Source: a virus (Duplodnaviria > Heunggongvirae > Uroviricota > Caudoviricetes). Taken from it: a stretch of DNA of 43,481 nucleotides. The position numbers were made by a program, and so were the translations under genes. This document shows positions 1,553-21,914 of the stretch, piece after piece (positions within the stretch are counted from its first letter, which is position 1; each line of letters opens with the position of its first letter). Where the stretch lies: the IMG/VR virus record IMGVR_UViG_2711768000_000011. One strand, given 5' to 3'. The notes under the pieces were generated by a model. The model saw nothing but the letters and a program-made list of their open reading frames with translations. It did no database searches and was not told the DNA's origin.

Positions 1553-1741
1553 TCACGAGGACTGAAGTTTCTCGCAATTAAAATTTATCAGTTTTACTTT
1601 CTGCTCTCTGGAAACGCCTGCTTCTTTTTTACCTGAGAGCATTTTTTCGCATTCTGATTTCGTTAGTTTAGATTTTGAATATCTTGTCCAGTTAGTAGGA
1701 GTGCCACCTTCCTTTTCAATAGTGGCGGTAATTTTATACAT
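1553..1741 (-). CDS. ydaC: Small Rac protein YdaC-like, 62 aa from MYKITATIEK
   Basis: ATG at 1741-1739 is preceded by GGAGGTG. Its start overlaps the end of the ralR reading frame (ATGTATAA). The 86-aa track ORF is an upstream extension without an RBS. Confidence 0.55.
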   Translation of the reverse strand: MYKITATIEKEGGTPTNWTRYSKSKLTKSECEKMLSGKKEAGVSREQKVKLINFNCEKLQSS

Positions 1742-2793: not shown

Positions 2794-5386
2794 TTGCATA
2801 TTCCTTAGCCCAGCGGGGCAGTGATAACGTCTTAATAGCTGGCCATTCATCGGTATTGAGGCAGTCAGCCAGGGTTCGCAGATTGCGGTGATATTCCAGC
2901 TGACCTGCCAGTTTTGCTTCTTCGCCCATCATGAAAATTTCAACCGGATAACGTCCGCATTCAATAGTTGTGCTGGCAACCAGAAAAACGAAAGTTGGCT
3001 GCACTCCAAACTGTGCTTCATAACCGTCACTGTAGAATGCATCCTGAACGTGATAGCGGTAGTCGTAATAAGCGGTTTTGAATCGTTGAATATCCGCCGT
3101 AGTTTTCACGTCCATGATCCAGTGAAATTCAGGGATAATTTTGTCCGGACGGCACCGACACAAAATTGCTGTTTCAGGATCTTCCCAGTAAATTGATGAT
3201 TCAGCGTGTCCGGCGCTTTCAACAAGCCATTGCCCCAGCGGCAAAGCCATAACGCTCTGATACATGAGTTCAATTTTCCGGCCTTCTTCGGCAGTGATAA
3301 CCGTTTTTCCTGTGCTTGCGCATTCCCTCAGAAACGCTTTCTCTTCTTCTTTTCCGGAGTTTGTCCGGCGGTTAAATTCAGGTGCTACGATAAAGCGGTT
3401 ACTGAATTCTTCCGGCTCAAGTACCCGGCAGTGGAAAGCGGTTCCTAAATCGAGCGTTTTTGTCTTTGTGGTGTCCACGGGGGCATTTTTACGCCACAAA
3501 TACAGTGCCGGAGTATCAGCAATGTCATCGAGCTGAGACTTACTGACACCGGGACCCGCGTGGTAATTCTCATTCGAAATTCCGTAATAAATACCTGGCT
3601 CTATGTCTTCTACGATTACGGGATCTGCGACTTCGCCAGTTTCATCACTGCAATCGCGATGCGGATCGCTGCCAGCATTCTCATTGTGCGGATGTTCAGC
3701 GCCTTCCATTTCCTCCGGATCATTTTCCTTAGCTTCAACCTGACTCTCTTCATCGAATGTTTCCTGGTATGTTGCGTCGCCCATCACCGCACCACAGTCA
3801 GGGCAGTTATCCCCGCCAGTCTGGCCGCAGGCATTGCAGGCTATTTCCGGTTCCTGTTGCACTACTGGCTCAGGTTGATTCATATCCGGGCTGGTTTTTT
3901 CCGTTTCTGGCTGGTTCTGGTACACACAATCGCGAGTCTGGATCCCCTTTACCCATTTCGGATCGTTCGGGTCGCTAATTCCGTCAACAAATTCACCACG
4001 TGATGCAGCAAGCAATTTATCGGCATCGACAGGATTTTTTGATGGAATGTTTTTCCGGGCTTCATGGAGTTCTGCCCGCAGTTCCTGATATTTCGCATCA
4101 ACAGAATTTACCTGTGACTGAGCATCCAGCGGCTGCGTGTCCTGATGATGTTCAGTTGCGTCCGGTTCCATTGTTTCAGCCTCTCCCTGTTCAACTGCCG
4201 TTGTTCCAGATGGTTGCGGTTTTTCTTCATCATCCTGTTTTCCTTCTTCTGTTACTCGCTGCGGCATCGGGGCAGAGGAGCGACCGCAGGCAATATCCAC
4301 GATTTCCGGATCAGGGTTGGCATGATCGGTTTCAGTCAGTACTTTGTTCAGATATTCAGTGACGTGCGCGGGGATGACCTCGATCCCAATTGGTGCTTCT
4401 TTTACGGACGCAACCACGATGGCGCGGGAATAATCCAGCCCGCCAGGCATGGTGATGAATTTGTCGCGGAAAACAGAAAAGGGCGGTTTATTTTCAGCGA
4501 TAATTTCCTCAATGCGTTTAGCGTGTGCCGGATGAAGGTTATAGATGTCCAGATCCATTGAACGGGCCAGTACGCCAGTGGCTACGTCCCGCGCCAGTGA
4601 CGTCAGATCGTGTACGAAACCTTCGCCGCGATCGGTGAGGTTTCCGCCGCCAGCATTAGCACCGGAAGCCGTGCGAGTGATGTGTGAAACACGATTACCC
4701 TTCATCCACTCTTTTGTCAGCAGTCCTCGATCGGTGTAGTCAGCGTTCAGGTATGCTTCGAAAAAAGCAGTTATCAGTCCCAGGTTTGAATTACCAGGAT
4801 TAGGGAAAACTTTGTCAGTGTCACGAACCAGTTTGTGGAGTTCGCGAATTTCCAGCGGGTCGAGCAGGCTGGTTTTGTGGGAAACAGCCAGGGCAGTAAC
4901 AGCCGGTAGTTCTTCAGCCCGAGCAATGTGTAATGCCTGGAGTCCGTCGCGTGAAACGTGCGTTACCGGTTTTTCGCTGCCGTGTTGAGCAAGCCAACGA
5001 ATGGGCAGTTCCTGGCCAGAAATTGGGAGTAGCATATTCTCCTCAATCTCAGTCATGTCTTCGCCGTTGACGTTGGTATTGCCTTGATAGTGAGCGTTGT
5101 CTGGTGCTGCTCCCGGTTTTAGTTCCCATGTCATGGAGTCTTTGCTGAGTTGATAGCGTTCACTCCAGGTAAAATCGATCTCACCTTCAGCGGGCAGGTC
5201 ATTAACGACAGGAAAATTCGTGGCAACAGCTTTAAAATAGCTGCTCAGTTTTTTACCTGACTTAACGATCAGGTAGTCCAGAGTGGCACAGGTCGATTCA
5301 AAATCGTTGCTTGCCCACAGGACGACGTCAGGTTCACCGGATGATTTTTTCGCTTTCCGTAACAGGAAGAGTGGTTTTGTGCTCAT
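2786..5386 (-). CDS. recE: Exodeoxyribonuclease VIII RecE, 866 aa
   Basis: 866-aa ORF with acidic/proline-rich central region and C-terminal nuclease domain. Length and sequence recognised as Rac RecE; translationally coupled to recT. Confidence 0.9.
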
Positions 5387-5457
5387 TGTTTTTTAACCTC
5401 AACTCAGATTAAAATTCGTTTTGTTCAGTGAATGATCTTGCCGGATACACACTGTTC

Positions 5458-5482
5458 ATAGCCTGCGCCATACGCAGGCTAT
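5458..5482 (+). terminator. Hairpin ATAGCCTGCG-ccaua-CGCAGGCTAT followed by TTCTTTC on the + strand, in the racC-recE spacer
   Basis: 10-bp perfect inverted repeat with a 5-nt loop. The T-rich tail is on the + strand only, although the flanking genes are on the minus strand. Confidence 0.35.
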
Positions 5483-5487
5483 TTCTT

Positions 5488-5763
5488 TCAGATTTCACCT
5501 TTTAATTTCATTGCAATTAGAGTTGCCAGAAATTCGGCTTTTTTTTCTGCGGGCAGATTCTTTCCGATATGCACCAGGCACATTTTTTTGACACCTTCAT
5601 CAAGTGTTTTTACGTTGCCTGATGGACCATCGATATCAACCACAGTGAATGGGGTTTCTTTATTTTCTGTTTTAATTACGTAGCCAATGCGCTTTCCTTC
5701 CAGATTCACCTCGTGAACAATGTCATCGGTAGTTACAACAGTGGCTTCATAATTGGTAATCAT
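5488..5763 (-). CDS. racC: RacC, 91 aa
   Basis: From ATG 5763 (MITNYEATVVTTDDIV...) preceded by AAGGAG. Length matches Rac RacC. The track ORF has a 16-codon upstream extension. Confidence 0.8.
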   Translation of the reverse strand: MITNYEATVVTTDDIVHEVNLEGKRIGYVIKTENKETPFTVVDIDGPSGNVKTLDEGVKKMCLVHIGKNLPAEKKAEFLATLIAMKLKGEI

Positions 5764-5837
5764 GTTTTTCTCCTTAATTAAGGTTGAGCGAATACCTGCC
5801 ATTTCTGGCATAAATTCAGTTTCGAATAGTCAATTAA

Positions 5838-6008
5838 TTAAAGTTCATGTGCCATCTGGTCTTTTTCGGCACAAGCTTCACTGCAATATTTTCTCGGTTC
5901 GTCTTTTGATAAAATCCCGTGCATGAAGTGAAGCATTCTTTCAATAGCTTTGCTTTCTTCAACGTCTTTTTTGCAAAGGTGGTAAGCACATTTTATTTTC
6001 TTAGTCAT
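5838..6008 (-). CDS. ydaE: YdaE-like zinc-binding small protein, 56 aa
   Basis: Hand translation: [59 protein letters not shown] overlaps the kilR stop (TGATG). Missing from the ORF track because it is under 60 aa. Confidence 0.75.
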   Translation of the reverse strand: MTKKIKCAYHLCKKDVEESKAIERMLHFMHGILSKDEPRKYCSEACAEKDQMAHEL

Positions 6009-6229
6009 CACCATGACTCCGCCTTTACAGGTAAACCATCACGACCGAGGAAGACTTTAATCATGCGGTCAGTAATGCATGTTTTTGTGGTCAGGTTACG
6101 AATATATAGTTTTCGCTTTTTAATATTGTTTGCCGAGGCAATATATGTCCGGCCTTCATGAAGAACATAATCGCCAGGAGTCACACACTGACGTGGTATT
6201 TCATCAGTTCCGAAGTGATGTGCAATCAT
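6008..6229 (-). CDS. kilR: KilR cell-division (FtsZ) inhibitor, 73 aa
   Basis: From second ATG ([15 protein letters not shown]...) with GGAG 7 nt upstream. 73 aa matches Rac KilR. Confidence 0.8.
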
Positions 6230-6410
6230 AATTATCTCCATTTTTACAAATGAACTTTGTTGATGCGGTGCCTGGTGCCTCCAGGTGACTGCAACCAGTT
6301 AACAATTACAGTCGGCTTTCCCACCCAAACCAATAAGGACTAACATGACTTTTAACTGTGCCACGTGCGCTTAGCCGCATTCACCGCATCACAAAATTCA
6401 CTTTAAAAAG

Positions 6411-6670: not shown

Positions 6671-7159
6671 ATGTTGGATGTATTTACTCCATTGTTGAAA
6701 CTTTTTGCTAACGAGCCACTCGAAATACTTATGTATACGATTATCATTTTTGGTCTCACTCTCTGGCTGATACCGAAAGAGTTTACTGTCGCATTCAATG
6801 CTTATACTGAAATACCTTGGCTCTTTCAGATTATCGTTTTTGCCTTTTCTTTCGTGGTCGCCATTTCCTTCTCAAGATTGCGAGCACATATTCAAAAGCA
6901 TTATTCATTACTACCAGAGCAACGAGTATTGCTTCGTTTATCTGAGAAAGAAATCGCTGTATTTAAAGATTTCCTTAAAACAGGAAATCTTATTATCACT
7001 TCTCCTTGCCGTAACCCGGTTATGAAAAAATTAGAACGGAAGGGCATCATTCAACATCAGAGTGATAGCGCAAACTGTTCTTATTATCTCGTCACCGAAA
7101 AATACTCCCATTTTATGAAGTTATTCTGGAACAGCAGGAGTAGACGTTTTAATCGTTAG
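6671..7159 (+). CDS. sieB: Superinfection exclusion protein SieB, 162 aa
   Basis: From ATG 6671 (MLDVFTPLLKLFANEPLE...), with two hydrophobic segments. 162 aa as recalled for SieB. The track ORF carries a 41-codon 5' extension. Confidence 0.8.
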   Translation: MLDVFTPLLKLFANEPLEILMYTIIIFGLTLWLIPKEFTVAFNAYTEIPWLFQIIVFAFSFVVAISFSRLRAHIQKHYSLLPEQRVLLRLSEKEIAVFKDFLKTGNLIITSPCRNPVMKKLERKGIIQHQSDSANCSYYLVTEKYSHFMKLFWNSRSRRFNR

Positions 7160-7311
7160 CTTACTGTGTGCTTCTCCAACCATCGGCGCGCACCAGTTTC
7201 GGTTTTAAATGTTTTGCTTTTGGTATACGTCATGGCAGTGAACGTTCCATCCTGGTTGGGGAACACGCCGCACACCAGGGATTCGTTGTTGCCGAGGTCG
7301 ATTTTTTGCAT
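7156..7311 (-). CDS. ydaF: YdaF-like small protein, 51 aa
   Basis: Hand translation MQKIDLGNNESLVCGVFPNQDGTFTAMTYTKSKTFKTETGARRWLEKHTVS. Stop overlaps the sieB stop (convergent). Under 60 aa, so not in the track. Confidence 0.65.
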   Translation of the reverse strand: MQKIDLGNNESLVCGVFPNQDGTFTAMTYTKSKTFKTETGARRWLEKHTVS

Positions 7312-7321
7312 TTTGCGAATC

Positions 7322-7456
7322 TCACATCTTGTTGCTGTGTATAGCGACTTCTGCCTGCCAGAGATCCCAGTCGTTGCTGCGTAAAGCCTGCACAGCCTGG
7401 TTGTAAGTGATACCGCAACAATCCATCAAATACTGAACTACTTCGTAATGCACCAT
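7322..7456 (-). CDS. ydaG: YdaG-like small protein, 44 aa
   Basis: From ATG 7456 (MVHYEVVQYLMDCCGITYNQ...) preceded by a strong SD GGGGAGAG. Confidence 0.65.
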   Translation of the reverse strand: MVHYEVVQYLMDCCGITYNQAVQALRSNDWDLWQAEVAIHSNKM

Positions 7457-7630
7457 CTTATCTCTCCCCTTAACGCCGGGTGGCGGAACTGAAACCTGCT
7501 GCACTGCAAAATCTGAACCCTGCCGTCATGTTCATACGCCTCGGGCTGGCTACTTAACCCCTGACCACTGCCTGGTAACTCGAAGTATTGCCCTGCGTTC
7601 TGTGGGGCGGGGTGGGTTGGTAGGTATATA

Positions 7631-7671
7631 ATGTACTTTGTGTTCATTGATGTAAAGTACTATAAGTACAT
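7631..7671. promoter_or_regulatory. Operator-like repeat cluster (ATGTACT-N3-AGTW/TGTT), candidate OL/PL region
   Basis: ATGTACT at 7631-7637. Palindromic AGTACTATAAGTACAT at 7656-7671 contains the same heptamer on the minus strand. Same motif as the repeats in the repressor/cro intergenic region. Confidence 0.45.
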
Positions 7672-7746
7672 TTTGTGTGTAAAAAAATGAGATGGGATAA
7701 AGTGAAGCACAAACCCGGAGGGGGACGCTACCGGATTTATGCTGGT

Positions 7747-8184
7747 TTAAGAGGCTTTTTGTTTTTTCTTTCGTGCTAGCTCTTCGTAAATTGCATTGTA
7801 CTTCTGTTTTTTCTCCTCAAGAGTTTTTAAAAGTTCATCTGTCTCACTGTCAGGGAGCTCGTCCAGAAGGTCAATGATGATTTTTTGTCTTGGATTTAAC
7901 TCCTGATAGAAACGTACCTGTCCACTTTCTTCTGTATCCTCTCCCAAAAGATAGGTTGGTGTTGTTCCAATGAGTGTTGCTAATTCCCTTAATTTCTCTC
8001 GGCGAGGAATTGTTTCGCCATTAAACCATTTGCTAACCGCTTTTGGTGTTAATTTCATTCGACGGGCAATTTCTGCCTGCCTTCCATGTTGTTCATAACC
8101 AGCGTTTTCACAGGCTAGCGCAAGCCTACTGGCGAACTCTTTACGCGCTTTATCTTCATGAACCATAAGTTCAATGATATTCAC
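7747..8184 (-). CDS. Prophage repressor, XRE-family HTH N-terminus with coiled-coil C-terminus and no S24 peptidase domain (RacR position)
   Basis: HTH segment QAEIARRMKLTPKAVSKWFNGE. Divergent from the Cro-like gene. Start is GTG 8184 or ATG 8166. C-terminal part is charged/helical rather than a LexA-like protease. Confidence 0.7.
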   Translation of the reverse strand: MNIIELMVHEDKARKEFASRLALACENAGYEQHGRQAEIARRMKLTPKAVSKWFNGETIPRREKLRELATLIGTTPTYLLGEDTEESGQVRFYQELNPRQKIIIDLLDELPDSETDELLKTLEEKKQKYNAIYEELARKKKQKAS

Positions 8185-8186
8185 TC

Positions 8187-8228
8187 TTGAATGTACTGTC
8201 AGTTCTGTTATAGCATGTACTCAAAGTT
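8187..8228. promoter_or_regulatory. Divergent promoter/operator region: two direct 14-bp repeats ATGTACTnnnAGTT overlapping a candidate PR (-35 TTGAAT, -10 TATAGC)
   Basis: Repeats at 8191-8204 and 8215-8228 lie between the repressor start and the Cro-like start. Confidence 0.45.
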
Positions 8229-8245
8229 CACATTGTGAGGGTGAT

Positions 8246-8500
8246 ATGAACCAGAAAACACTTGAAGATGTAATCAAAACTGTTCGCGTTTCTGTTGTGG
8301 CCGACGTTTGTGGTGTCAGCCAAAGAGCAATCTACAAATGGATGGATAACGGAAAATTGCCTCGCACAGAATATACCGGCGAAACAAATTACGCTGAAAA
8401 AATCGCTCATGCATCAAACGGATTATTTTCTGCTGATGTAATTTTAACTATTGGCAGAAATAAAACTACTACGAAAAAGCTGATGGGAGTTGATTCATGA
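8246..8500 (+). CDS. Cro/YdaS-like HTH protein, 84 aa from ATG 8246
   Basis: GAGGGTGA SD before ATG 8246. HTH VADVCGVSQRAIYKWMDNGKLP. First gene of the rightward operon, with stop overlapping the next start (ATGA). Confidence 0.65.
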   Translation: MNQKTLEDVIKTVRVSVVADVCGVSQRAIYKWMDNGKLPRTEYTGETNYAEKIAHASNGLFSADVILTIGRNKTTTKKLMGVDS

Positions 8501-8919
8501 AAATCAAGCATGAGCACATCGAGTCAGTGTTGTTAGCCCTGGCAGCCGAAAAAGGGCAGGCATGGGTAGCCAATGCCATTACTGAAGAATATCTGCGCCA
8601 GGGGGGCGGCGAATTGCCCCTGGTACCAGGCAAGGACTGGAATAATCAGCAGAATATCTATCACCGTTGGTTGAAAGGTGAAACGAAAACGCAAAGAGAA
8701 AAAATTCAGAAGCTGATCCCAGCAATTCTGGCAATCCTTCCGCGCGAGCTGCGTCACCGACTCTGCATCTTCGATACCCTGGAACGCCGTGCATTACTGG
8801 CGGCGCAGGAAGCGTTAAGTACGGCAATTGATGCGCATGATGATGCAGTCCAAGCCGTTTACCGGAAAGCGCATTTCAGCGGCGGCGGGTCTTCCGACGA
8901 TTCTGTCATTGTTCATTAA
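8497..8919 (+). CDS. ydaT: YdaT-like protein, 140 aa (toxic partner of YdaS in Rac)
   Basis: 140-aa ORF coupled to the upstream Cro-like gene. Length and position match Rac YdaT. Confidence 0.7.
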   Translation: MKIKHEHIESVLLALAAEKGQAWVANAITEEYLRQGGGELPLVPGKDWNNQQNIYHRWLKGETKTQREKIQKLIPAILAILPRELRHRLCIFDTLERRALLAAQEALSTAIDAHDDAVQAVYRKAHFSGGGSSDDSVIVH

Positions 8920-8931
8920 GCAAAAGTTTCC

Positions 8932-9789
8932 ATGCTGTTTGTGCTTATTCTAAGCCACCGGGCAGCATCATACGGGGCAATTATGGCCGCATTACCATAC
9001 ATGCAACTGTACATAGCTGATTACCTGGCTGACACCATGCATTTGTCAGCAGAGGAGCATGGTGCGTATTTGTTGCTGATGTTCAATTACTGGCAAACAG
9101 GAAAGCCAATACCTAAAAACAGGCTGGCAAAAATTGCCCGTCTGACTAACGAGCGATGGGCTGATGTTGAACCATCCTTGCAGGAGTTTTTTTGCGATAA
9201 CGGCGAGGAATGGGTGCATCTTCGGATTGAGGAAGATCTGGCATCAGTCAGGGAAAAATTAACCAAAAAATCAGCCGCAGGAAAAGCATCTGTTCAGGCC
9301 AGAAGAAGCAGAAAGGAAGCAGATGTTCAAACAAAACAAGAGAGAAATTTAACAGGTGTTCAAACAGATGTTGAAGTGGTGTTTGAACATGATGTCAACA
9401 CAAAGGCAACTAATAAAGATACAGATAAAGATCTAAAAACAGATCCCCCCCTAAATCCCCCCCGGGGGAATCGAGGTGTCAAAAAGTTTGACCCTCTGGA
9501 TATTGCTTTGCCGAACTGGATTTCTGTCTCGCTTTGGCGTGAGTGGGTTGAATTTCGCCAGGCATTGCGAAAACCGATTCGAACGGAGCAGGGCGCTAAC
9601 GGGGCGATACGGGAGCTGGAAAAATTCCGCCAGCAGGGTTTTTCACCTGAGCAGGTGATTCGACACAGCATCGCCAATGAATACCAGGGCTTGTTCGCGC
9701 CGAAAGGTGTTCGACCTGAGACGTTACTCCGACAGGTTAACACCGTCTCGTTACCGGATAGTGCGATCCCGCCAGGCTTCAGGGGGTAA
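8932..9789 (+). CDS. ydaU: Replication initiation-like protein YdaU, 285 aa (DUF1376-like)
   Basis: 285-aa ORF with N-terminal conserved segment MAALPYMQLYIADYLADTMHLSAEEHGAYLLL. Position matches the lambda O analogue. Confidence 0.8.
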   Translation: MLFVLILSHRAASYGAIMAALPYMQLYIADYLADTMHLSAEEHGAYLLLMFNYWQTGKPIPKNRLAKIARLTNERWADVEPSLQEFFCDNGEEWVHLRIEEDLASVREKLTKKSAAGKASVQARRSRKEADVQTKQERNLTGVQTDVEVVFEHDVNTKATNKDTDKDLKTDPPLNPPRGNRGVKKFDPLDIALPNWISVSLWREWVEFRQALRKPIRTEQGANGAIRELEKFRQQGFSPEQVIRHSIANEYQGLFAPKGVRPETLLRQVNTVSLPDSAIPPGFRG

Positions 9790-11496: not shown

Positions 11497-11634
11497 ACGT
11501 TACTAGATCAAAGAGCATTAGTTCATATGTAAATTGACATTTTTCTGGCACAGGGGAGAGCTAGCGTGGTTGTCCGCTTTGTGCCAATAGCGGACATTGC
11601 TGGCTCATGGTATGTTAGTTTAAGGAGGCAGGTT

Positions 11635-12657
11635 ATGCCCTGTATTTCGCTGTGGTATAATAGTTGCGCAATTGATACAAGGGAGCGTTACATCGTGAAA
11701 ATTGTTTTCGAGGTTAATGGAAAGAAAGTTCCACTAAAATCTTTAAAATACATAAGCAAAAAAGATCAACTCGAAGTAATGAAAAACTGGTTCTTTGAAA
11801 ACTTTGAAGATCCGGCAAATGCTTGTCCGTATGAAAGTAGAGAAGGTGGCTATGCTTACATATATGGCGGGCCGTATGATGCGAGCGAAGAACTACAATC
11901 CATCTTCGGTCAATATGTTAAATCTGAGTATATTGAGGAATTAGTAGATGAATTACAAACACAATGTTTTGACTGGTCTGGAAACTCAAATAATATAGAT
12001 GATTGGTACGATGATGATATCTACGACGCTGTAACGTCTTCCGGTAATCCGTATTTAAAATTCATTGATAATATCGATAAAATAAAAAAACTTGCAAAAG
12101 ATAAAACTGAACAACAGCAAAAAAACCACTTGCTTAGTTTGCTCTACACGAATGTTATTACAGCTTTGGAAACGCTTTATGTTGAGCTATTCATTAATTC
12201 TATAGAGAAAGATGATGTCTACATAGCCAATTGTATAGAAAAAGGTAAGACTGAATTTAAAGTAAGCAAAGATATTGCTGCGTTGCCTTTCAAGGGTGAA
12301 CCCATCGAGAAAATTAGGGGAGAGCTAATCAGGTCAATCAAGGAACACTTGATCAGTGCAAGCTGGCATAGCACTAAAAAGGTAATCGACCGCTATGAAG
12401 CTACATTCGATATAAAAGTACAAAAAGACTGTCCGATAGAAGCTATTGAATTGGCAACCCTCAATCGAAATCACTTAGTGCATCGTGGTGGAAAGGATAA
12501 AGAAGGGAACCTCGTAGTGATTACAGACCAGGATCTTGAAACGCTGATTGAAAATGCATCGAACCTGGCAATTATGCTCTACAACAGTTTAAATGTAGCA
12601 ACGAATAAAACCACCATTTTGCAACCAGATGACAAACCGTTCATTCATGAATTTTAA
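11635..12657 (+). CDS. Cassette gene A: hypothetical low-GC protein with an Rx4H (HEPN-like) motif RNHLVH
   Basis: Start ambiguous: ATG 11635 with AAGGAGG SD, or GTG 11695 with GGGAG SD. Coding region is about 35% GC. Acidic N-terminal half and helical C-terminal half. No recognisable phage function. Confidence 0.7.
   Translation: MPCISLWYNSCAIDTRERYIVKIVFEVNGKKVPLKSLKYISKKDQLEVMKNWFFENFEDPANACPYESREGGYAYIYGGPYDASEELQSIFGQYVKSEYIEELVDELQTQCFDWSGNSNNIDDWYDDDIYDAVTSSGNPYLKFIDNIDKIKKLAKDKTEQQQKNHLLSLLYTNVITALETLYVELFINSIEKDDVYIANCIEKGKTEFKVSKDIAALPFKGEPIEKIRGELIRSIKEHLISASWHSTKKVIDRYEATFDIKVQKDCPIEAIELATLNRNHLVHRGGKDKEGNLVVITDQDLETLIENASNLAIMLYNSLNVATNKTTILQPDDKPFIHEF
11653..11661 (+). promoter_or_regulatory. 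Candidate extended -10 (TGgTATAAT) upstream of or within the start of cassette gene A
   Basis: Motif seen directly; a perfect TTGACA lies at 11534-11539. Conflicts with the ATG 11635 start, so either the promoter or that start is wrong. Confidence 0.3.
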
Positions 12658-12672
12658 TAGCGCAGGTCATAC

Positions 12673-13674
12673 ATGGATATTCGCACACGAAAGACAAAAT
12701 TTTTAGAGTCGTTAGATTCAACTGAAGTGATACGCAAAGCAGTAAGTCTCGCTATAGATTGCATTATTGATAATCATAATAGTAATGAAGATACCCCCTT
12801 AGTTATTACCAGCTATGATGATCTCTGTAGAATCCAGGTGCTAAATTATGTACAGGAGTTTTGCGAAGCTGCATTCCCTGATATGGATGAATATTACTTT
12901 AGTCCTAACATACTTCGCATCAACGGCAAGACTAGTGAAGAAGCTTGTATTAACTTAATTAAACTCTTAAGAAGTACAAAAGGCATGCTATTCTGGTCCG
13001 ATGCCCCATCGTGGTTCGCTAGCCTCCCCGACGGATTATTCCATGTTGTTAACATTGATCAAAAAATCGTTACTCGCGGCCTTAATAAGAAAAACTCTAA
13101 GCCGACAATAATCAATAAAGATTACAGTGTAGATACACTACTATCAGAGCTATTTTTGAATGGCGCACACATGGAGCAACCCAACGTACACAACGTTTCT
13201 GAGGGAAACATGAAGTTCTATGATGAATGCCATGCTGGATTAATCAGACCAATACCCGCTCCAATAGGCGCGTCATACGATGAAGAGATCACAATTAATT
13301 CTCCAGATTGGCAAAAGCTCGCGTGTGTAGCTTTACGCCGCTATCAGTCGAAGGAATGTCATGACGGAATGCAATGGGATACAACCGATCATGGTTGGAC
13401 TGATGTAATCGCGTATCCATTCGTCGAAGAAATACAATCAATGGATAATAGTGGTTATCGACAATGTTTAGTTGGGCTGGTCACAATAAACAATTCAAAT
13501 GCAAATTCTCCGTACCTATCTACCGTTTGGATACATCCATTTTATCGCAGGAGAGGGTTATTAAGTAAGTTATGGCCAAAATTACAAGAGTTATATGGAA
13601 GTAACTTCGAAATTGAGCGACCTAATGAAAATATGAAAGCATTTCTGAAAAGTGCGAAACACGCAGATTACTAA
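12673..13674 (+). CDS. Cassette gene B: hypothetical low-GC protein, 333 aa, with a weak GNAT-like motif near the C-terminus
   Basis: Starts 15 nt after gene A stop, so likely co-transcribed. C-terminal LVGLVTI...HPFYRRRGLLSKLW resembles a GNAT beta-strand plus motif A, non-canonically. No recognisable phage function. Confidence 0.7.
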   Translation: MDIRTRKTKFLESLDSTEVIRKAVSLAIDCIIDNHNSNEDTPLVITSYDDLCRIQVLNYVQEFCEAAFPDMDEYYFSPNILRINGKTSEEACINLIKLLRSTKGMLFWSDAPSWFASLPDGLFHVVNIDQKIVTRGLNKKNSKPTIINKDYSVDTLLSELFLNGAHMEQPNVHNVSEGNMKFYDECHAGLIRPIPAPIGASYDEEITINSPDWQKLACVALRRYQSKECHDGMQWDTTDHGWTDVIAYPFVEEIQSMDNSGYRQCLVGLVTINNSNANSPYLSTVWIHPFYRRRGLLSKLWPKLQELYGSNFEIERPNENMKAFLKSAKHADY

Positions 13675-16046: not shown

Positions 16047-16336
16047 TGGTGAATTTACGTAAAGCGGCTAAAGGCCAGATGTGCCAGATCAGAATCCCTG
16101 GCTACTGCAATCACAATCCCGAAACCTCTGTGCTGGCGCATTACAGGCTGGCGGGGACGTGCGGAACAGCGACAAAACCACATGATATGCAGGCGGCGAT
16201 AGCCTGTAGCTCATGCCACGATCTAATCGACGGGCGGGTAAAAACCAGCGATTACACCAAAGAAGAATTGCGCCTGATGCATGCTGAAGGGGTTTTTCGC
16301 ACACAAGAAATCTGGAGAAAGAAAGGTCATTTATGA
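16046..16336 (+). CDS. YbcO-like (DUF1364) putative nuclease, 96 aa, Cys-rich
   Basis: Cys cluster CQIRIPGYC...CSSCHD. Start overlaps the upstream stop (TAATG). Confidence 0.6.
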   Translation: MVNLRKAAKGQMCQIRIPGYCNHNPETSVLAHYRLAGTCGTATKPHDMQAAIACSSCHDLIDGRVKTSDYTKEELRLMHAEGVFRTQEIWRKKGHL

Positions 16337-16875
16337 TTTACCCAACGAATACAGGAAAAAGCGGAGAACACCTTCGCCTCACCACGCTGGAAAGTGTCTG
16401 GATTCAGGGAAAACTACGTATGTGGGGGCGCTGGTCGTATATTGGCGGTGGCAGGTCAGGGAATATGTTCAATCAGTTGTTGGCATCCAAAAAACTGACG
16501 AAAACAGCCATTAATGAAGCCCTGCGCAGAATGAAAAAAGCGGGAATAGAGAAAGCTGAGCTGGAAGCGTTTTTGCGAGAGATGATCAACGGCAAGCAAA
16601 AGAGCTGGCTGGCGCATTGTACTGATGCAGAGGCGTTATGTATTGATCGAGTCATAAGTGAGGTGCTGGCAGAGCATCCAGGATTGATTTGCATTCTCCG
16701 GCAACGCTATGAAGGGCGGGGGATGACTAAGCGCAAAATGGCTGAATTGCTAAATGATGCACACCCAGAGTGGTGTTTTAGCACATGCGAAAAACGGATT
16801 GCTAATTGGTTAGCTGTTGCTGAGTATGCCCTATATATTCCCATGCGTGAATCATTTGCTGAGAAAATGGCTTGA
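16333..16875 (+). CDS. Hypothetical protein, positional candidate for late-gene antiterminator (Q-like), 180 aa
   Basis: Last gene before a strong terminator and the lysis module, as for lambda Q. ATGA overlap with the upstream gene. The functional call is positional only. Confidence 0.4.
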   Translation: MIYPTNTGKSGEHLRLTTLESVWIQGKLRMWGRWSYIGGGRSGNMFNQLLASKKLTKTAINEALRRMKKAGIEKAELEAFLREMINGKQKSWLAHCTDAEALCIDRVISEVLAEHPGLICILRQRYEGRGMTKRKMAELLNDAHPEWCFSTCEKRIANWLAVAEYALYIPMRESFAEKMA

Positions 16876-16954
16876 TTTCTTACGTATAAACTGCTTCAAT
16901 TTTGCTATGCTTCGCAAAGCTGTATCGCGAGGCGGATTGCAGACATGGACATCG

Positions 16955-16982
16955 TAAAAAAACCGCTTAATGCGGTTTTTTT
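16955..16982 (+). terminator. Rho-independent terminator (AAAAAAACCGC-uuaau-GCGGTTTTTTT), candidate tR'-like
   Basis: Perfect GC stem flanked by an A-run and a T-run, so possibly bidirectional. About 80 nt after the Q-like gene. Confidence 0.8.
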
Positions 16983-17302
16983 ACGTCAGGAAAGCAGGGG
17001 AGAATGCTGCTAGTTGGGCAACTGGTCTTTCTGCTCCAAATTATAACAGAGACCAGTTATAGTTTCGGTGCTGTGTTTTTTTTACAATATTGTGATAACA
17101 CATTGCTGGCGGGAGTTTTGATATTTCTTGGCAGGGGCTGATGATGCGTTATCCTGATGTCGTCAACTCATATAAAATGAGATGAGAGATCATTGCAGGG
17201 TGGTTTGTAATTCGCTGTTTAGCGGGACAATATGTTGTCTGATACAAGACACCCGACGCCTCAGATTACTATAATAAAGACGAAGCATCCTTTGTATTGA
17301 CC

Positions 17303-17328
17303 AACCGCCTGTTTAGGCGGTTCTTTTT
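17303..17328 (+). terminator. Rho-independent terminator (CCGCCTGTTTAGGCGG + TTCTTTTT)
   Basis: 6-bp stem with 4-nt loop and a T-run. A TATAAT at 17270-17275 lies about 30 nt upstream. Confidence 0.65.
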
Positions 17329-17860
17329 GGGCTGGTTTATTGTATGCCAAATGATTATTAAAAAGGTTGTGTTAATAACAAGATCCGAAATAATATGCCT
17401 GCATATTTTTATCTTGCTTATATTCTGCATATTGTGCATAGCAGGCTCATCCCTGCAATCAAAACTGTATGATGAGTATTTTTTGTTTTCCTTTTTTCCA
17501 GTCATCTGATGATGACCTGCTTCTTTTTAATCCGGATCGACATCAGTTTTTTAAGATAATTCCTGCGAGTTATATGCATAAATGCCACAAACTCCGCATT
17601 TTATGTGGTTGGGAGTTGCCGGGCGCGCAGTGAGTTTGCTAAGAAAACTCCTGCATGGTGAATCCCCCTGTGCGGTGGGGTGATACCATTAACCTTTTCT
17701 GTCGCCGACAGGTATCACGAACATTTTGTTCACCGGGAGGCACCCGGCACCATGCACTTCAATAGATTCTCTCCACATTATGGATATTCTTTCAGAATAT
17801 CCCACGCAGACTTTGTGTAAATGTTAACAAATGTGCGTTTTATTTGATCTGATTCGCTGT

Positions 17861-17890
17861 TTGAGCGTCCAAAACAACGGTATATATAAT
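17861..17890 (+). promoter_or_regulatory. Candidate sigma70 promoter for the first lipoprotein gene (-35 TTGAGC, 18-bp spacer, -10 TATAAT)
   Basis: Motifs at 17861-17866 and 17885-17890, about 30 nt upstream of ATG 17920. Confidence 0.4.
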
Positions 17891-17919
17891 CCTTTACTAT
17901 ATGACATATGTGAGGAAAA

Positions 17920-18348
17920 ATGGGTTTTCGTAGCGCATCAATTCTTACGTTGATTATTAGTGGGATTATTATCGGGTGCACTGATGCTGTATCGACAAAT
18001 TATCATGACCGTACATCATATTACTCCGATAAAGCAATAGAGACACAGTATGTGAGTTCATCTGAACGTACTTCTGATGTTAGTGAGGATATCCGTCTGT
18101 ATGCCCATCAAATCAAGAGCGCCATCGAAAAACAGTTCGGGGATGCGAGTAAGTATTCAGGAAAAGAGTGTACACTGAGAATGCATATGGCCCCGAATGG
18201 CCTTCTACTGGAGGTTAAAAGAGAAAGTGGAGACCTCGATTTATGTCGTGAAGCGATGAATGCGATAAAGAATGCTGATATACCTGCCCCCCCTTCGCCG
18301 GAAGTATATAAAGTATTTCAAAATGGGGTGCTGGATTTTAAACCCTGA
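17920..18348 (+). CDS. Predicted lipoprotein, 142 aa (lipobox IIGC)
   Basis: Signal peptide and lipobox. C-terminal region is paralogous to the next gene (shared C.L.M...G, PEVY.FQ.G.D motifs). Confidence 0.7.
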   Translation: MGFRSASILTLIISGIIIGCTDAVSTNYHDRTSYYSDKAIETQYVSSSERTSDVSEDIRLYAHQIKSAIEKQFGDASKYSGKECTLRMHMAPNGLLLEVKRESGDLDLCREAMNAIKNADIPAPPSPEVYKVFQNGVLDFKP

Positions 18349-18498
18349 TATTTATTGTTTTGTAATAAACGGTTTCGGCTTAGGTTTGTTCTGACACAGC
18401 TACGGCACTGAGCTAAATTTAGCGGATAGTCAGCTCTGAGCCAGTGGCGGACGTAACAACTACTATTGCTGAGATTTTAATGGATTGAGGAGCAAGAA

Positions 18499-18894
18499 GT
18501 GGGATTAAAGAAAATCGTTATGTTGACTTTTTGGGTCGGTTTTGTTGCGGGATGCACACCTTTACACCCTTCAGATTGCCACAAAACTACTGCTACAGGT
18601 AGTTGCAGTTCAGGACGCTGGGATGATCAGGATGAATGGGGGGCGCAAGCGCGGGGAATCAGAGCTGCAATTAATGCCAAACTTGATGAGCCGCATAACT
18701 GGAAAGGGAAAAAATGCAGGTTGCATATGGAATTCTCTCAGGATGGCACGGCGTTAAAAATATCTACCAGTAACGGTGATAAAGCCTATTGCGAAGCGAT
18801 AAAGTCCGCAGCTCATAAAGCCAAATTTCCGGCCTTCAACAATCCGGAAGTCTACAGAGATTTTCAGAAATCTGGCTTTGACATGCGAGGTTAG
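18499..18894 (+). CDS. Predicted lipoprotein, 131 aa (lipobox VAGC), paralogue of the previous gene
   Basis: GTG start with GAGGAG SD. Signal peptide MGLKKIVMLTFWVGFVAGC. Conserved C-terminal domain shared with 17920-18348. Confidence 0.65.
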   Translation: MGLKKIVMLTFWVGFVAGCTPLHPSDCHKTTATGSCSSGRWDDQDEWGAQARGIRAAINAKLDEPHNWKGKKCRLHMEFSQDGTALKISTSNGDKAYCEAIKSAAHKAKFPAFNNPEVYRDFQKSGFDMRG

Positions 18895-19145
18895 CTCTTC
18901 AATTACTATATCTCATTCATAGCAAACTGACAGATTTGATGATGTTCTATATACGAAACCTGTGATGTCAAGTCTGAGCTAATACAAATAAACATAATAT
19001 CAGAGAAATACATTTTATTAGCTCGCTACGGCGAGCTTTTTATATTGCATCGTCTCCAGCATATATATCAATTAAGGCTCTGATTGATGTGTCTGAAAGC
19101 CTACACATAATAACTATGCCATCCGTTCCGTGCGGAGGTGAGGCT

Positions 19146-19361
19146 ATGAAATCCATGGACAAAATTTCAACAGGCATTGCCTACGGCACCTCCGCAGGCA
19201 GTGCTGGCTACTGGTTTTTACAGTTGCTCGATAGAGTAACTCCGTCACAGTGGGCTGCAATCGGTGTGCTGGGTAGTCTGGTATTTGGCCTGCTGACGTA
19301 CCTGACAAACCTTTATTTCAAGATTAAAGAAGATAAGCGCAAGGCTGCGAGAGGTGAATAA
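19146..19361 (+). CDS. Holin, 71 aa, with dual-start motif MKSM
   Basis: [26 protein letters not shown]... with hydrophobic segments and a charged C-terminus. Resembles DLP12 EssD. Confidence 0.8.
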
Positions 19362-19858
19362 TGCCTCCATCATTACGAAAAGTCGTTGCTGCTGCTATTG
19401 GTGGCGGAGCAATTGCTATAGCATCAGTGTTAATCACTGGCCCAAGTGGTAACGATGGTCTGGAAGGTGTCAGCTACATACCATACAAAGATATTGTTGG
19501 TGTATGGACTGTATGTCACGGGCATACAGGAAAAGACATCATGCTCGGTAAAACGTATACCAAAGCAGAATGCAAAACACTCTTGAATAAAGACCTTGCC
19601 ACTGTCGCCAGACAAATTAACCCGTACATCAAAGTCGATATACCGGAAACAACGCGCGGCGCTCTTTACTCATTCGTTTACAACGTGGGTGCTGGCAATT
19701 TCAGAACATCGACGCTTCTTCGCAAAATAAACCAGGGCGATATCAAAGGCGCATGTGATCAGCTACGTCGCTGGACATATGCTGGCGGTAAGCAATGGAA
19801 AGGTCTCATGACTCGTCGTGAGATTGAGCGTGAAATCTGTTTGTGGGGTCAGCAATGA
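19361..19858 (+). CDS. SAR endolysin (T4-lysozyme-like muramidase with N-terminal signal-anchor-release domain), 165 aa
   Basis: N-terminal Gly/Ala-rich hydrophobic segment [20 protein letters not shown] followed by a lysozyme domain. Start overlaps the holin stop (TAATG). Confidence 0.85.
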
Positions 19859-20319
19859 ACAGAGTAACCGCGATTATCTCCGCTCTGGTTATCTGCATCA
19901 TCGTCTGCCTGTCATGGGCTGTTAATCATTACCGTGATAACGCCATTACCTACAAAGCCCAGCGCGACAAAAATGCCAGAGAACTGAAGCTGGCGAACGC
20001 GGCAATTACTGACATGCAGATGCGTCAGCGTGATGTTGCTGCGCTCGATGCAAAATACACGAAGGAGTTAGCTGATGCGAAAGCTGAAAATGATGCTCTG
20101 CGTGATGATGTTGCCGCTGGTCGTCGTCGGTTGCACATCAAAGCAGTCTGTCAGTCAGTGCGTGAAGCCACCACCGCCTCCGGCGTGGATAATGCAGCCT
20201 CCCCCCGACTGGCAGACACCGCTGAACGGGATTATTTCACCCTCCGGGAACGACTGGTAATGATGCAGGCCCAACTTGAAGGTGCTCAGCAATACATAAC
20301 CGAGCAGTGTTTAAAGTAA
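19855..20319 (+). CDS. Rz i-spanin, about 154 aa
   Basis: N-terminal transmembrane segment and coiled-coil periplasmic domain. ATGA overlap with the endolysin. Confidence 0.8.
20075..20260 (+). CDS. Rz1 o-spanin lipoprotein embedded in the +1 frame of Rz, 61 aa
   Basis: Lipobox LVVVGC and proline-rich mature region (PPPPPAW...PPPDW), entirely inside Rz. Confidence 0.8.
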
Positions 20320-20456
20320 AATCTTAACTACAATATGATTCATTTTGATGATTGTTTCATAAGGAACAGTGAAGTAAGATCTAAGAGGAGTTAAATTTTA
20401 TACAGTATAATCATAATATTGCAGCAAGGTGGTTATAATTGAAAGAATATTTAGAT

Positions 20457-21914
20457 ATGAATACATCTCATGTAAGAGTTGTTACTCATATGTGTGGGTT
20501 CCTGGTTTGGCTCTATAGTCTTTCAATGTTGCCACCAATGGTTGTAGCATTGTTTTATAAAGAAAAAAGCCTGTTCGTTTTCTTTATAACTTTCGTTATA
20601 TTTTTTTGCATTGGTGGCGGAGCGTGGTATACAACTAAGAAATCTGGCATTCAATTACGTACCCGTGATGGGTTTATTATAATTGTAATGTTTTGGATTT
20701 TGTTTTCTGTTATTAGTGCATTCCCTTTATGGATTGACTCAGAACTTAATTTAACGTTCATTGATGCTCTGTTTGAAGGGGTTTCTGGAATAACAACAAC
20801 AGGAGCAACTGTAATTGATGATGTTAGTTCATTACCTCGGGCATATTTGTACTATCGGTCACAGTTAAATTTTATAGGTGGTTTAGGAGTTATTGTTCTG
20901 GCGGTTGCAGTATTGCCATTATTGGGTATTGGTGGTGCAAAGCTTTATCAGTCAGAAATGCCGGGGCCATTTAAGGATGACAAACTCACTCCCCGCCTGG
21001 CCGATACGTCACGGACACTGTGGATAACTTATTCTTTATTAGGTATTGCTTGTATTGTCTGTTATAGACTTGCAGGAATGCCTTTGTTTGATGCTATTTG
21101 TCACGGGATTTCCACAGTTTCGCTTGGTGGTTTCTCAACTCATAGCGAGAGTATCGGATATTTTAATAACTATTTGGTTGAGCTGGTGGCTGGTTCTTTT
21201 TCCCTGCTATCGGCTTTCAACTTCACTCTTTGGTATATTGTTATTAGCAGAAAAACGATAAAACCTTTAATCAGAGATATTGAACTTCGTTTCTTTCTGT
21301 TAATAGCCTTAGGGGTGATCATTGTTACCTCTTTCCAGGTCTGGCATATAGGTATGTATGACTTGCATGGAAGTTTTATTCATTCGTTTTTTCTTGCCAG
21401 CTCCATGCTCACTGATAATGGTTTAGCTACGCAGGATTATGCAAACTGGCCCACGCACACGATAGTGTTTTTGCTGTTGTCAAGTTTCTTTGGGGGATGT
21501 ATAGGTTCAACCTGTGGTGGAATTAAGTCACTTCGATTTCTTATACTTTTCAAACAAAGCAAACACGAGATAAATCAGCTTTCTCATCCCAGAGCGTTGT
21601 TGAGTGTAAATGTAGGAGGGAAGATAGTTACAGATCGTGTAATGAGGTCTGTATGGAGTTTCTTTTTTCTTTATACTCTCTTCACGGTGTTTTTTATACT
21701 GGTGTTAAATGGTATGGGATATGATTTTCTTACATCATTTGCAACAGTGGCTGCATGTATTAATAATATGGGATTAGGTTTTGGGGCTACTGCATCGTCA
21801 TTCGGAGTGCTTAATGACATTGCAAAATATTTAATGTGCATAGCTATGATTCTTGGTCGCCTTGAAATTTATCCTGTTATTATATTGTTTTCAGGTTTTT
21901 TTTGGCGCTCCTAA
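20457..21914 (+). CDS. trkG: TrkG potassium uptake protein (TrkH family), 485 aa
   Basis: Multi-pass membrane protein from MNTSHVRVVTHMCGFLVW. Recognised as Rac TrkG. Low GC. Confidence 0.9.
   Translation: MNTSHVRVVTHMCGFLVWLYSLSMLPPMVVALFYKEKSLFVFFITFVIFFCIGGGAWYTTKKSGIQLRTRDGFIIIVMFWILFSVISAFPLWIDSELNLTFIDALFEGVSGITTTGATVIDDVSSLPRAYLYYRSQLNFIGGLGVIVLAVAVLPLLGIGGAKLYQSEMPGPFKDDKLTPRLADTSRTLWITYSLLGIACIVCYRLAGMPLFDAICHGISTVSLGGFSTHSESIGYFNNYLVELVAGSFSLLSAFNFTLWYIVISRKTIKPLIRDIELRFFLLIALGVIIVTSFQVWHIGMYDLHGSFIHSFFLASSMLTDNGLATQDYANWPTHTIVFLLLSSFFGGCIGSTCGGIKSLRFLILFKQSKHEINQLSHPRALLSVNVGGKIVTDRVMRSVWSFFFLYTLFTVFFILVLNGMGYDFLTSFATVAACINNMGLGFGATASSFGVLNDIAKYLMCIAMILGRLEIYPVIILFSGFFWRS

Follow-up and report, generated by a model that had tools for sequence, protein, structure and literature searches.

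Two predicted lipoproteins built on TolA domain III in a lambdoid prophage and their possible role as co-receptor decoys

What do two small neighbouring genes in front of the lysis cassette of a lambdoid prophage encode, and what might they do for the element that carries them? The genes, called gene 1 and gene 2 here, lie in a stretch of viral DNA of 43,481 nucleotides (Caudoviricetes; IMG/VR record IMGVR_UViG_2711768000_000011), the whole of which is referred to as the window, and they occupy a 2.2-kb gap between a Q-like antiterminator gene and the holin gene (Table 1). An initial annotation, made from the sequence without database searches, had described two lipoprotein genes with a shared C-terminal domain, and both open reading frames, their position on the + strand, their export signals and the common domain were confirmed. 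The shared domain is the C-terminal domain III of TolA (TolAIII), which that annotation had missed.

The domain is recognized by the Pfam model PF06519 (TolA) in both proteins, with E-values of 2.4e-23 (82.6 bits) for gene 1 and 1.3e-14 (54.6 bits) for gene 2 against a gathering score of 25. In BLASTP comparisons with residues 334-421 of E. coli TolA, gene 1 shows 60% identity and gene 2 shows 34%, and the two proteins share 29% identity with each other over 141 columns (E 2e-18). A sequence search of solved structures with gene 1 returned the TolAIII chains 1s62, 3qdp, 2x9a, and 1tol at E-values of about 1e-27. AlphaFold models of both proteins have a block-mean predicted local distance difference test (pLDDT) above 90 over most of the domain and below 50 in the signal peptide and linker. 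With Foldseek, the gene 1 model matches 2x9a_B, which is TolAIII complexed with the g3p of phage IF1, with a root-mean-square deviation (rmsd) of 0.6 Å over 88 columns, and the gene 2 model matches 3qdp with an rmsd of 1.1 Å over 86 columns. The Cys363-Cys388 pair of TolA is aligned with cysteines in both proteins, the gene 1 equivalents being Cys84-Cys109. The motif by which the domain had been noticed is real but was given slightly out of register, as C.L.M.....G..L contains five residues and not three between the M and the G, and the G of FQ.G.D is shifted by one between the two genes.

Genes 1 and 2 encode TolAIII-only lipoproteins, not TolA. The NCBIfam TolA models (TIGR02794/PRK09510) match only over their final 80-100 positions (265-362 and 293-386); although the TIGR02794 score of gene 1 exceeds the cut-off, the match is limited to the last 100 or so positions of that profile. 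The N-terminal transmembrane anchor of TolA (domain I, which couples it to TolQ-TolR) is not present in either gene, and lipoprotein signals stand in its place. The Lys/Ala-rich helical domain II of TolA is likewise absent from both, the distance from the lipid-bearing cysteine to the domain being only about 25-30 residues. Furthermore, the genes are not found in a tolQRA-tolB-pal operon setting but between the Q-like gene and the phage lysis cassette. Both proteins match PHROG 5772, a family of unknown function, over profile positions 1-128 (E 1.6e-62 and 6.7e-65), and gene 2 also has a weak match to PHROG 5374, whose function is unknown too. Among the viral structures of BFVD, no TolAIII-like fold was found at E <= 0.001.

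The N-termini of gene 1, MGFRSASILTLIISGIIIGC, and of gene 2, MGLKKIVMLTFWVGFVAGC, are canonical lipoprotein signals, each with a charged n-region, a hydrophobic h-region, and a lipobox that fits [LVI][ASTVI][GAS]C. The lipobox is present in every full-length homologue that was aligned. For gene 2, the GTG start and the resulting 131-residue reading are preferred over the PGAP start, an internal ATG at 18520 with which the Lys-Lys n-region is lost, because a plasmid homologue has ATG where the window has GTG and carries the identical GAGGAG upstream. The linker of gene 2 is highly conserved, with the consensus PLHPSxCHKTTAxGSCSSGRWDDQDEWG. Aspartate at the +2 position after the lipid-bearing cysteine retains lipoproteins in the inner membrane. 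Genes 1 and 2 have Thr at this position, so sorting to the outer membrane is predicted, and their products would be exported, lipidated on Cys20 and Cys19, respectively, and placed on the inner face of the outer membrane. In the PGAP/RefSeq annotation, gene 1 is reduced to its final 87 codons (window positions 18088-18348), which are labelled as a pseudogene, "tolA, incomplete, missing N-terminus."

The ligand-binding surfaces of TolAIII are known, and the published contacts were transferred to genes 1 and 2 through the BLASTP alignment. The N1 domain of g3p, colicin N, and the TolB N-terminus share one site on TolA, the beta-3 strand A415-K420, and proline mutants at D418 and K420 abolish the binding of colicin N and g3p, block the TolA-TolB interaction, and cause a full tol phenotype (PMC4339652). 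Gene 1 reads GVLDFKP at this strand where TolA reads APLDFKP, and the equivalents of Asp418 and Lys420 are kept. The colicin A site consists of the strand L375-P380 together with the cation-pi lysines K368, K379, and K396 (PMC3365938). At this site, gene 1 has LLEVKR and retains K379 and K396, with His in place of K368. Judged by its sequence, gene 1 is thus a close TolAIII mimic and gene 2 a diverged relative.

The combination of a lipoprotein signal and TolAIII is found in a wider family. Searching 1.84 billion representative proteins with a profile of both subfamilies gave 581 matches at E <= 1e-3; 66 of the 149 best are short lipobox proteins, mostly of 115-150 amino acids, and clusters at 50% identity with this architecture number at least 66. 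None of these 66 lipobox-bearing representatives has Asp at +2, and most of those inspected end in a TolA-like xLDF[KR]x motif. Named members come from Serratia, Kosakonia, Enterobacter, Leclercia, Dryocola, and Scandinavium. Lipoproteins of this family, 120-150 amino acids long, are generally mislabelled "cell envelope integrity protein TolA."

The relatives of the two genes lie in different places. Those of gene 1 are mostly genes of E. coli prophages, at 91%, 74%, and 66% identity, and all of these variants retain the lipobox. With the gene 2 protein, the counterparts on IncB/O/K/Z plasmids and pO157 share about 88% identity, and those on the chromosomes of Enterobacter and Serratia share 83-86%. 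At the DNA level, the identity with the pO157 gene is 87% over 18469-18896, from 30 bp upstream of the start through the stop codon, and megablast finds the same match of roughly 87% on about 600 plasmids in all. A tblastn search returned matches on 917 of 72,556 plasmids, and conjugation is predicted for 488 of these 917. On conjugative IncB/O/K/Z plasmids, the gene 2 homologue comes next after mobA/nikA and the relaxase gene in the transfer region; on pO157, it lies near and after psiB, psiA, and hok. No homologue was found in the 50-68 kb stretch of the classical F plasmid that was examined, leading region included, so the gene 2 type is not a general feature of F plasmids. A third type, of 144 amino acids with the lipobox LITAC and about 35% identity to gene 2, occurs on conjugative Klebsiella IncF plasmids, and about 310 plasmids, mostly from Klebsiella, share this tblastn match at low identity (<60%). 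The Enterobacter gene occupies a fixed place on the chromosome, without phage genes in its vicinity.

Several smaller observations were made at these loci. In five IncB/O/K/Z plasmid loci (in one of them at 6995-7426), the homologue lies about 70 bp downstream of the relaxase gene in the same orientation, and the consistency of this adjacency and orientation suggests co-transcription with the relaxosome genes. The third type adjoins a thioredoxin-fold gene in the Klebsiella pneumoniae IncF plasmid pMR0617ctx (locus 5217-6246), where a UvrD-helicase and ATPase gene pair resembling a defence system lies a few kb away. On the Serratia marcescens chromosome (locus 7001-9736), the gene 2 homologue stands beside GmrSD-family and HEPN-domain genes in a setting like that of a defence island. 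Upstream of gene 2 in the window (18393-18498), the sequence ctgacacagctacggcactgag resembles the sequence ctgacagagctatggtactgag in the stretch 6975-7030 of that IncB/O/K/Z plasmid locus, which is found directly before the plasmid ribosome-binding site; in the window, the motif and the gene 2 ribosome-binding site are set about 55 bases further apart, possibly through an insertion or a local repeat.

These identities bear on the origin of the pair, which the initial annotation had taken for a tandem duplication diverging under diversifying selection. Gene 1 shares 60% identity with host TolAIII but only 29% with gene 2, and gene 2 is nearer to the plasmid and chromosomal genes (88% with the plasmid copies); therefore, two separate acquisitions are indicated, and a recent tandem duplication was ruled out. 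By the method of Nei and Gojobori, the ratio of nonsynonymous to synonymous substitution rates (dN/dS) comes to 0.11-0.12 when gene 2 is compared with the plasmid copies and to 0.08 in its comparison with Enterobacter and Serratia; gene 1, compared with its 66% variant, has a ratio of 0.36 overall and of 0.25 in the domain alone. These ratios, all below 1, indicate purifying selection on both genes, and diversifying selection was rejected. The segment with genes 1 and 2 (1.5 kb) is present in 771 of 5,426 complete E. coli genomes at >=99% identity and >=80% coverage, and with a dN/dS of 0.08-0.36, the two genes are, on this comparative evidence, functional.

What that function might be is best answered, with a probability of roughly 0.45, by the exclusion of incoming agents through decoys tethered to the outer membrane, which would trap the g3p of filamentous phages and Tol-dependent colicins. 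A flexible linker would suspend the TolAIII domain beneath the outer membrane, with no coupling to the TolQR motor, and the domain would present to incoming molecules the same edge-strand docking surface as TolA. Its ligands would include the N1 domain of filamentous-phage g3p and the translocation domains of group A colicins such as N, A, E1, and K; docking on the decoy would be unproductive, and the cell would be tolerant. Gene 2, being divergent, would probably widen or shift the range of ligands. Transcription would come from the late operon on induction and possibly from a promoter of the pair's own in the lysogen. An exclusion role had been proposed before, with receptor masking as the other suggestion; exclusion remains the best-supported role, but the mechanism would be a periplasmic co-receptor decoy and not the masking of a surface receptor.

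Three lines of evidence argue for a decoy. The docking strand of TolA is preserved in gene 1 and in most of the family. Free periplasmic TolAIII has known effects: a construct of a signal sequence and TolAIII exported to the periplasm causes E. coli to leak periplasmic protein (PMC6195910). The architecture also recurs on conjugative plasmids; TolA-dependent filamentous phages use the pili of such plasmids as primary receptors, and the g3p of the I-pilus phage IF1 docks on TolAIII (PDB 2x9a). In work of Levengood-Freyermuth et al. in 1993, exported TolAIII reportedly gave tolerance to group A colicins. The context on mobile elements fits a defence of elements whose hosts are exposed. In its widest form, the proposal is that mobile elements of enterobacteria carry a natural co-receptor decoy, the ligand-binding domain of TolA made into an outer-membrane lipoprotein that intercepts g3p and Tol-dependent colicins, so that plasmids offset the phage vulnerability caused by their pili and prophages and pO157 confer colicin tolerance; this generalization is put forward tentatively, as somewhat short of an even chance.

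A number of points weigh against this proposal. In gene 2, the beta-3 strand is altered to SGFDMRG, and at the colicin A site, which reads ALKIST, all three lysines are lost. The very strong conservation of gene 2 across genera, with stable, non-mobile sites in Enterobacter, is explained by a conserved host partner no less well than by an arms race. The affinity of TolAIII for its ligands is only micromolar, and a decoy would therefore have to be made in considerable amounts. Competition for TolB is also to be expected from a close mimic, with possible harm to the envelope. Deposited phages with genes 1 and 2 number one in 50,697 (mEp460_ev081, by tblastn), PADLOC defence models gave no match, and searches of full-text literature found no study of these proteins, functional or other.

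The point about a host partner leads to the main rival proposal, considered fairly unlikely, in which the tethered TolAIII modulates the host Tol-Pal system by binding the TolB N-terminus, Pal, or CpoB and locally uncouples the outer membrane from the wall. Such a modulator would aid the breaching of the envelope late in infection, during assembly of the conjugation apparatus, or in vesicle production. It would agree with a position of the genes directly upstream of the holin within the late transcription unit, with the place of the I-complex plasmid homologue next after the relaxase in the transfer region, and with the conservation of the TolB-binding strand, which gene 1 shares with most of the family. 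The dN/dS of 0.08 for gene 2 across genera and its housekeeping-like chromosomal sites suggest a conserved host partner, and the leakiness of the outer membrane caused by periplasmic TolAIII points the same way (PMC6195910). However, the spanins Rz and Rz1 already handle the outer membrane, a constitutive weakening of the envelope would be costly although Enterobacter and Serratia keep the gene stably on their chromosomes, and the TolA-TolB interaction is weak, at about 40 µM (PMC4339652). Conjugation is also not known to require any disruption of Tol-Pal.

Receptor masking, the suggestion of the initial annotation, would have the domain add as a strand to the periplasmic face of an outer-membrane protein, for instance to a TonB-box-like or Tol-box-like strand of a transporter or porin, and so block tailed phages or other colicins, comparable to Cor and Llp acting on FhuA. 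This is improbable. Small outer-membrane lipoproteins of lambdoid phages are a known exclusion device, with Cor and Llp as examples (see also bioRxiv 10.64898/2026.03.26.714494), the fold is shared with the TonB C-terminal domain, which is among the Foldseek matches and to which the weak Pfam TonB_2 match of gene 1 also points, and the changed beta-3 strand of gene 2 could suit a ligand other than those of TolA. No homology to Cor or Llp was found, however, as Pfam gives only TolA and TonB_2 and the PHROGs give only 5772 and, weakly, 5374; no candidate target was found, and the surfaces of gene 1 match the ligand sites of TolA and not those of TonB. The notion that the genes are non-functional remnants, gene 1 being a tolA fragment captured by recombination and gene 2 a hitch-hiking open reading frame, would agree with the PGAP label of an incomplete tolA and with the confinement of the TIGR02794 match to the end of the profile. 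It is close to refuted by the intact reading frames, Shine-Dalgarno sequences, and canonical lipoprotein signals of both genes, by the lipobox kept in gene 1 variants down to 66% identity, by a dN/dS below 1 (0.25 within the gene 1 domain), and by the presence of this architecture in no fewer than 66 clusters. The remaining probability is assigned to functions not foreseen here.

The proposed decoys resemble several known systems in part. TolA domain III itself (PDB 1TOL, 1S62, 3QDP/3QDR, 2X9A), which binds g3p-N1, colicins N and A, and the TolB N-terminus, has the fold and disulfide pair in common with both proteins and the beta-3 docking strand in common with gene 1; TolA, however, is anchored in the inner membrane and reaches across, whereas the domain of genes 1 and 2 should hang from the outer membrane. 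The exported TolAIII construct (pTA3Y; Levengood-Freyermuth, 1993; Wan and Baneyx, 1998) is likewise a free periplasmic TolAIII without the motor, but it is artificial, soluble, and overexpressed, whereas genes 1 and 2 are natural, diverged, carried on prophages and plasmids, and predicted to have a lipid anchor. Llp of T5 and Cor of phi80, N15, HK022, and the mEp phages are also small outer-membrane lipoproteins of phages, which from the periplasmic side block the entry of further phages or colicins; they bind and plug FhuA, whereas genes 1 and 2 are unrelated to them in sequence and would instead imitate a host co-receptor. In the superinfection immunity given by filamentous-phage g3p, the same interaction of g3p N1 with TolAIII is used to block phage and colicin entry, but there the phage ligand saturates the host TolA, while here a copy of the host domain would absorb the ligand. 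Lastly, the cargo carried between Q and S by lambdoid phages, such as stx in Stx phages and the nmpC/lc porin genes (with bor nearby), shares the slot, the late transcript predicted for genes 1 and 2, and apparently the possession of its own terminator; it differs in kind, and no TolA-domain cargo was found in any search made here.

The sequences were already in the databases, where the domain is also named; envelope exclusion cargo of phages and plasmids is already known, and what would plausibly be new is the principle, co-receptor mimicry. If decoys they are, a seventh of sequenced E. coli would have a built-in tolerance to filamentous phages and group A colicins, and the same tolerance would be conferred by the O157:H7 virulence plasmid and by many I-complex and Klebsiella IncF resistance plasmids. 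This would bear on the control of enterohaemorrhagic E. coli (EHEC) with colicins, on engineered colicin-producing probiotics, and on M13-type delivery vectors, and it would throw light on the means by which conjugative plasmids withstand pilus-specific phages. Mimicry of a host co-receptor domain would then be a new principle among exclusion and defence systems and, to our knowledge, the first defence that imitates a host entry factor, not modifying, masking, or removing it. Whatever the function, natural, diverged TolAIII domains under purifying selection would be useful in the Tol-Pal field for working out which of their surfaces binds which partner. As to annotation, gene 1 carries the PGAP label of a tolA pseudogene, and the name "cell envelope integrity protein TolA," given to many members, is wrong for this family.

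The window is an apparently intact Rac-like lambdoid prophage with integrase, RecT, RecE, terminase, and tail genes, and it contains a DUF1367 gene and a YbcO gene in addition to the Q-like gene. The placement of envelope cargo between Q and the lysis genes holds as originally described, two intact lipoprotein genes filling the lambdoid Q-to-lysis slot; PGAP names in the cassette that follows are essD and rrrD. In phage mEp460_ev081, the stretch matching window positions 17729-19362, with gene 1, gene 2, and the holin gene, is 99% identical, and the Q gene and endolysin differ. The wider distribution was read from 158 IMG/VR viral-contig loci, which come from two scans partly covering the same contigs and comprise only near-identical E. 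coli prophage copies. In these, the block 17729-19361 is linked wherever the contig allows, and about half of the loci have the Q-like module of the window upstream, the other half being without it, like mEp460_ev081. The block is thus joined to at least two different upstream Q modules, and other prophages carry different cargo in the slot, as is characteristic of a moron. The 66% variant of gene 1 occupies the same Q-to-holin slot of other prophages, next to tRNAs, an AraC-type regulator, and a gene containing DUF1737, SASA, and DUF6645 domains. A tRNA scan of the window found none.

The initial annotation had placed gene 1 under a candidate promoter of its own, apart from the late operon. 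A holin requires Q-dependent transcription, and each Q acts only at its cognate late promoter. Since the block 17729-19361 is common, at 99% identity, to phages with different Q genes, and gene 1, gene 2, and the holin gene thus stand together under different Q modules, the late promoter should lie upstream of 17729, and genes 1 and 2 should therefore join the late transcript on induction and be transcribed with the lysis genes, contrary to that separation. The proposed sigma-70 site at 17861-17890 is present, but it is treated as a candidate and not as evidence, because such sites show no enrichment over shuffles in this AT-rich region (11 promoter-like sites observed versus 6.8 +/- 2.8 in shuffles) and the 66% variant of gene 1 lacks the site, being preceded by unrelated sequence. 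A segment further upstream, 17246-17330, may tentatively be read, at low confidence, as a candidate late promoter with an early terminator; it always accompanies the Q-like gene in the IMG/VR loci. The terminator-like hairpin after gene 2 ends the two-gene cassette ahead of the holin gene.

Directly upstream of gene 1 lies a prophage small RNA of the STnc100 family, which a preprint (10.64898/2026.05.13.724894) relates to the PasD small RNAs and which is also found upstream of gene 1 in mEp460_ev081. Its terminal hairpin is here without the U tract of the family consensus, so read-through into gene 1 might occur. A role of STnc100 as a Q-dependent late leader was considered and rejected: in mEp460, the RNA lies far downstream of Q and the tRNAs, and it is not found in the loci of the 66% variant.

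Table 1. Positions of genes 1 and 2, their protein regions, and the surrounding features (window coordinates unless residues are given)
Feature	Position	Strand	Details
Q-like antiterminator gene	16333-16875	+	DUF1133 PF06576, E 2.5e-107; weak Phage_antitermQ PF06530, E 8.6e-6
Terminator-like hairpin	about 16947-16985		read by eye from the sequence
Promoter-like site	17246-17275	+	AAGACA, 18-nt spacer, TATAAT; followed by hairpin and T run, 17303-17322 and beyond
STnc100-family prophage small RNA	17623-17809	+	Rfam RF02076, 86.6 bits (gathering score 47)
Candidate sigma-70 promoter, gene 1	17861-17890	+	TTGAGC, 18-nt spacer, TATAAT; 10/12 match
Gene 1	17920-18348	+	ATG start, 142 amino acids; GAGG at 17912-17915
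Gene 1 predicted signal peptide and lipobox IIGC	residues 1-20	+	Cys20 at 17977-17979
Gene 1 disordered linker	residues 21-50
Gene 1 TolA domain III	residues 51-142, about 18070-18345	+
Gene 2	18499-18894	+	GTG start, 131 amino acids; GAGGAG at 18487-18492
Gene 2 predicted signal peptide and lipobox VAGC	residues 1-19	+	Cys19 at 18553-18555
Gene 2 conserved Cys-containing linker	residues 20-45
Gene 2 divergent TolA domain III	residues 46-131, about 18634-18891	+
Intrinsic-terminator-like hairpin after gene 2	19020-19045	+	AGCTCGC-TACG-GCGAGCT (hairpin 19020-19037), then TTTTTAT
Lysis cassette	19089-20319	+	P21-type holin, lysozyme, Rz with embedded Rz1; PF04971, PF00959, PF03245

Three further observations concern the rest of the window. 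Two adjacent open reading frames on the + strand, 11566-12657 (363 amino acids) and 12673-13674 (333 amino acids), are situated between the replication genes and the NinR-like region; no Pfam or PADLOC match was obtained for either, and they may be uncharacterised cargo. The RalA antitoxin small RNA (Rfam RF02694, 225 bits) at 1557-1735 (+) adjoins RecT and RecE, and this adjacency marks the element as Rac-like. Directly after Rz, as in the Rac prophage of K-12, stands trkG (20439-21914, +), a TrkH-family potassium transporter gene with a markedly low G+C content of 0.33-0.43 versus about 0.48 in the lysis genes.

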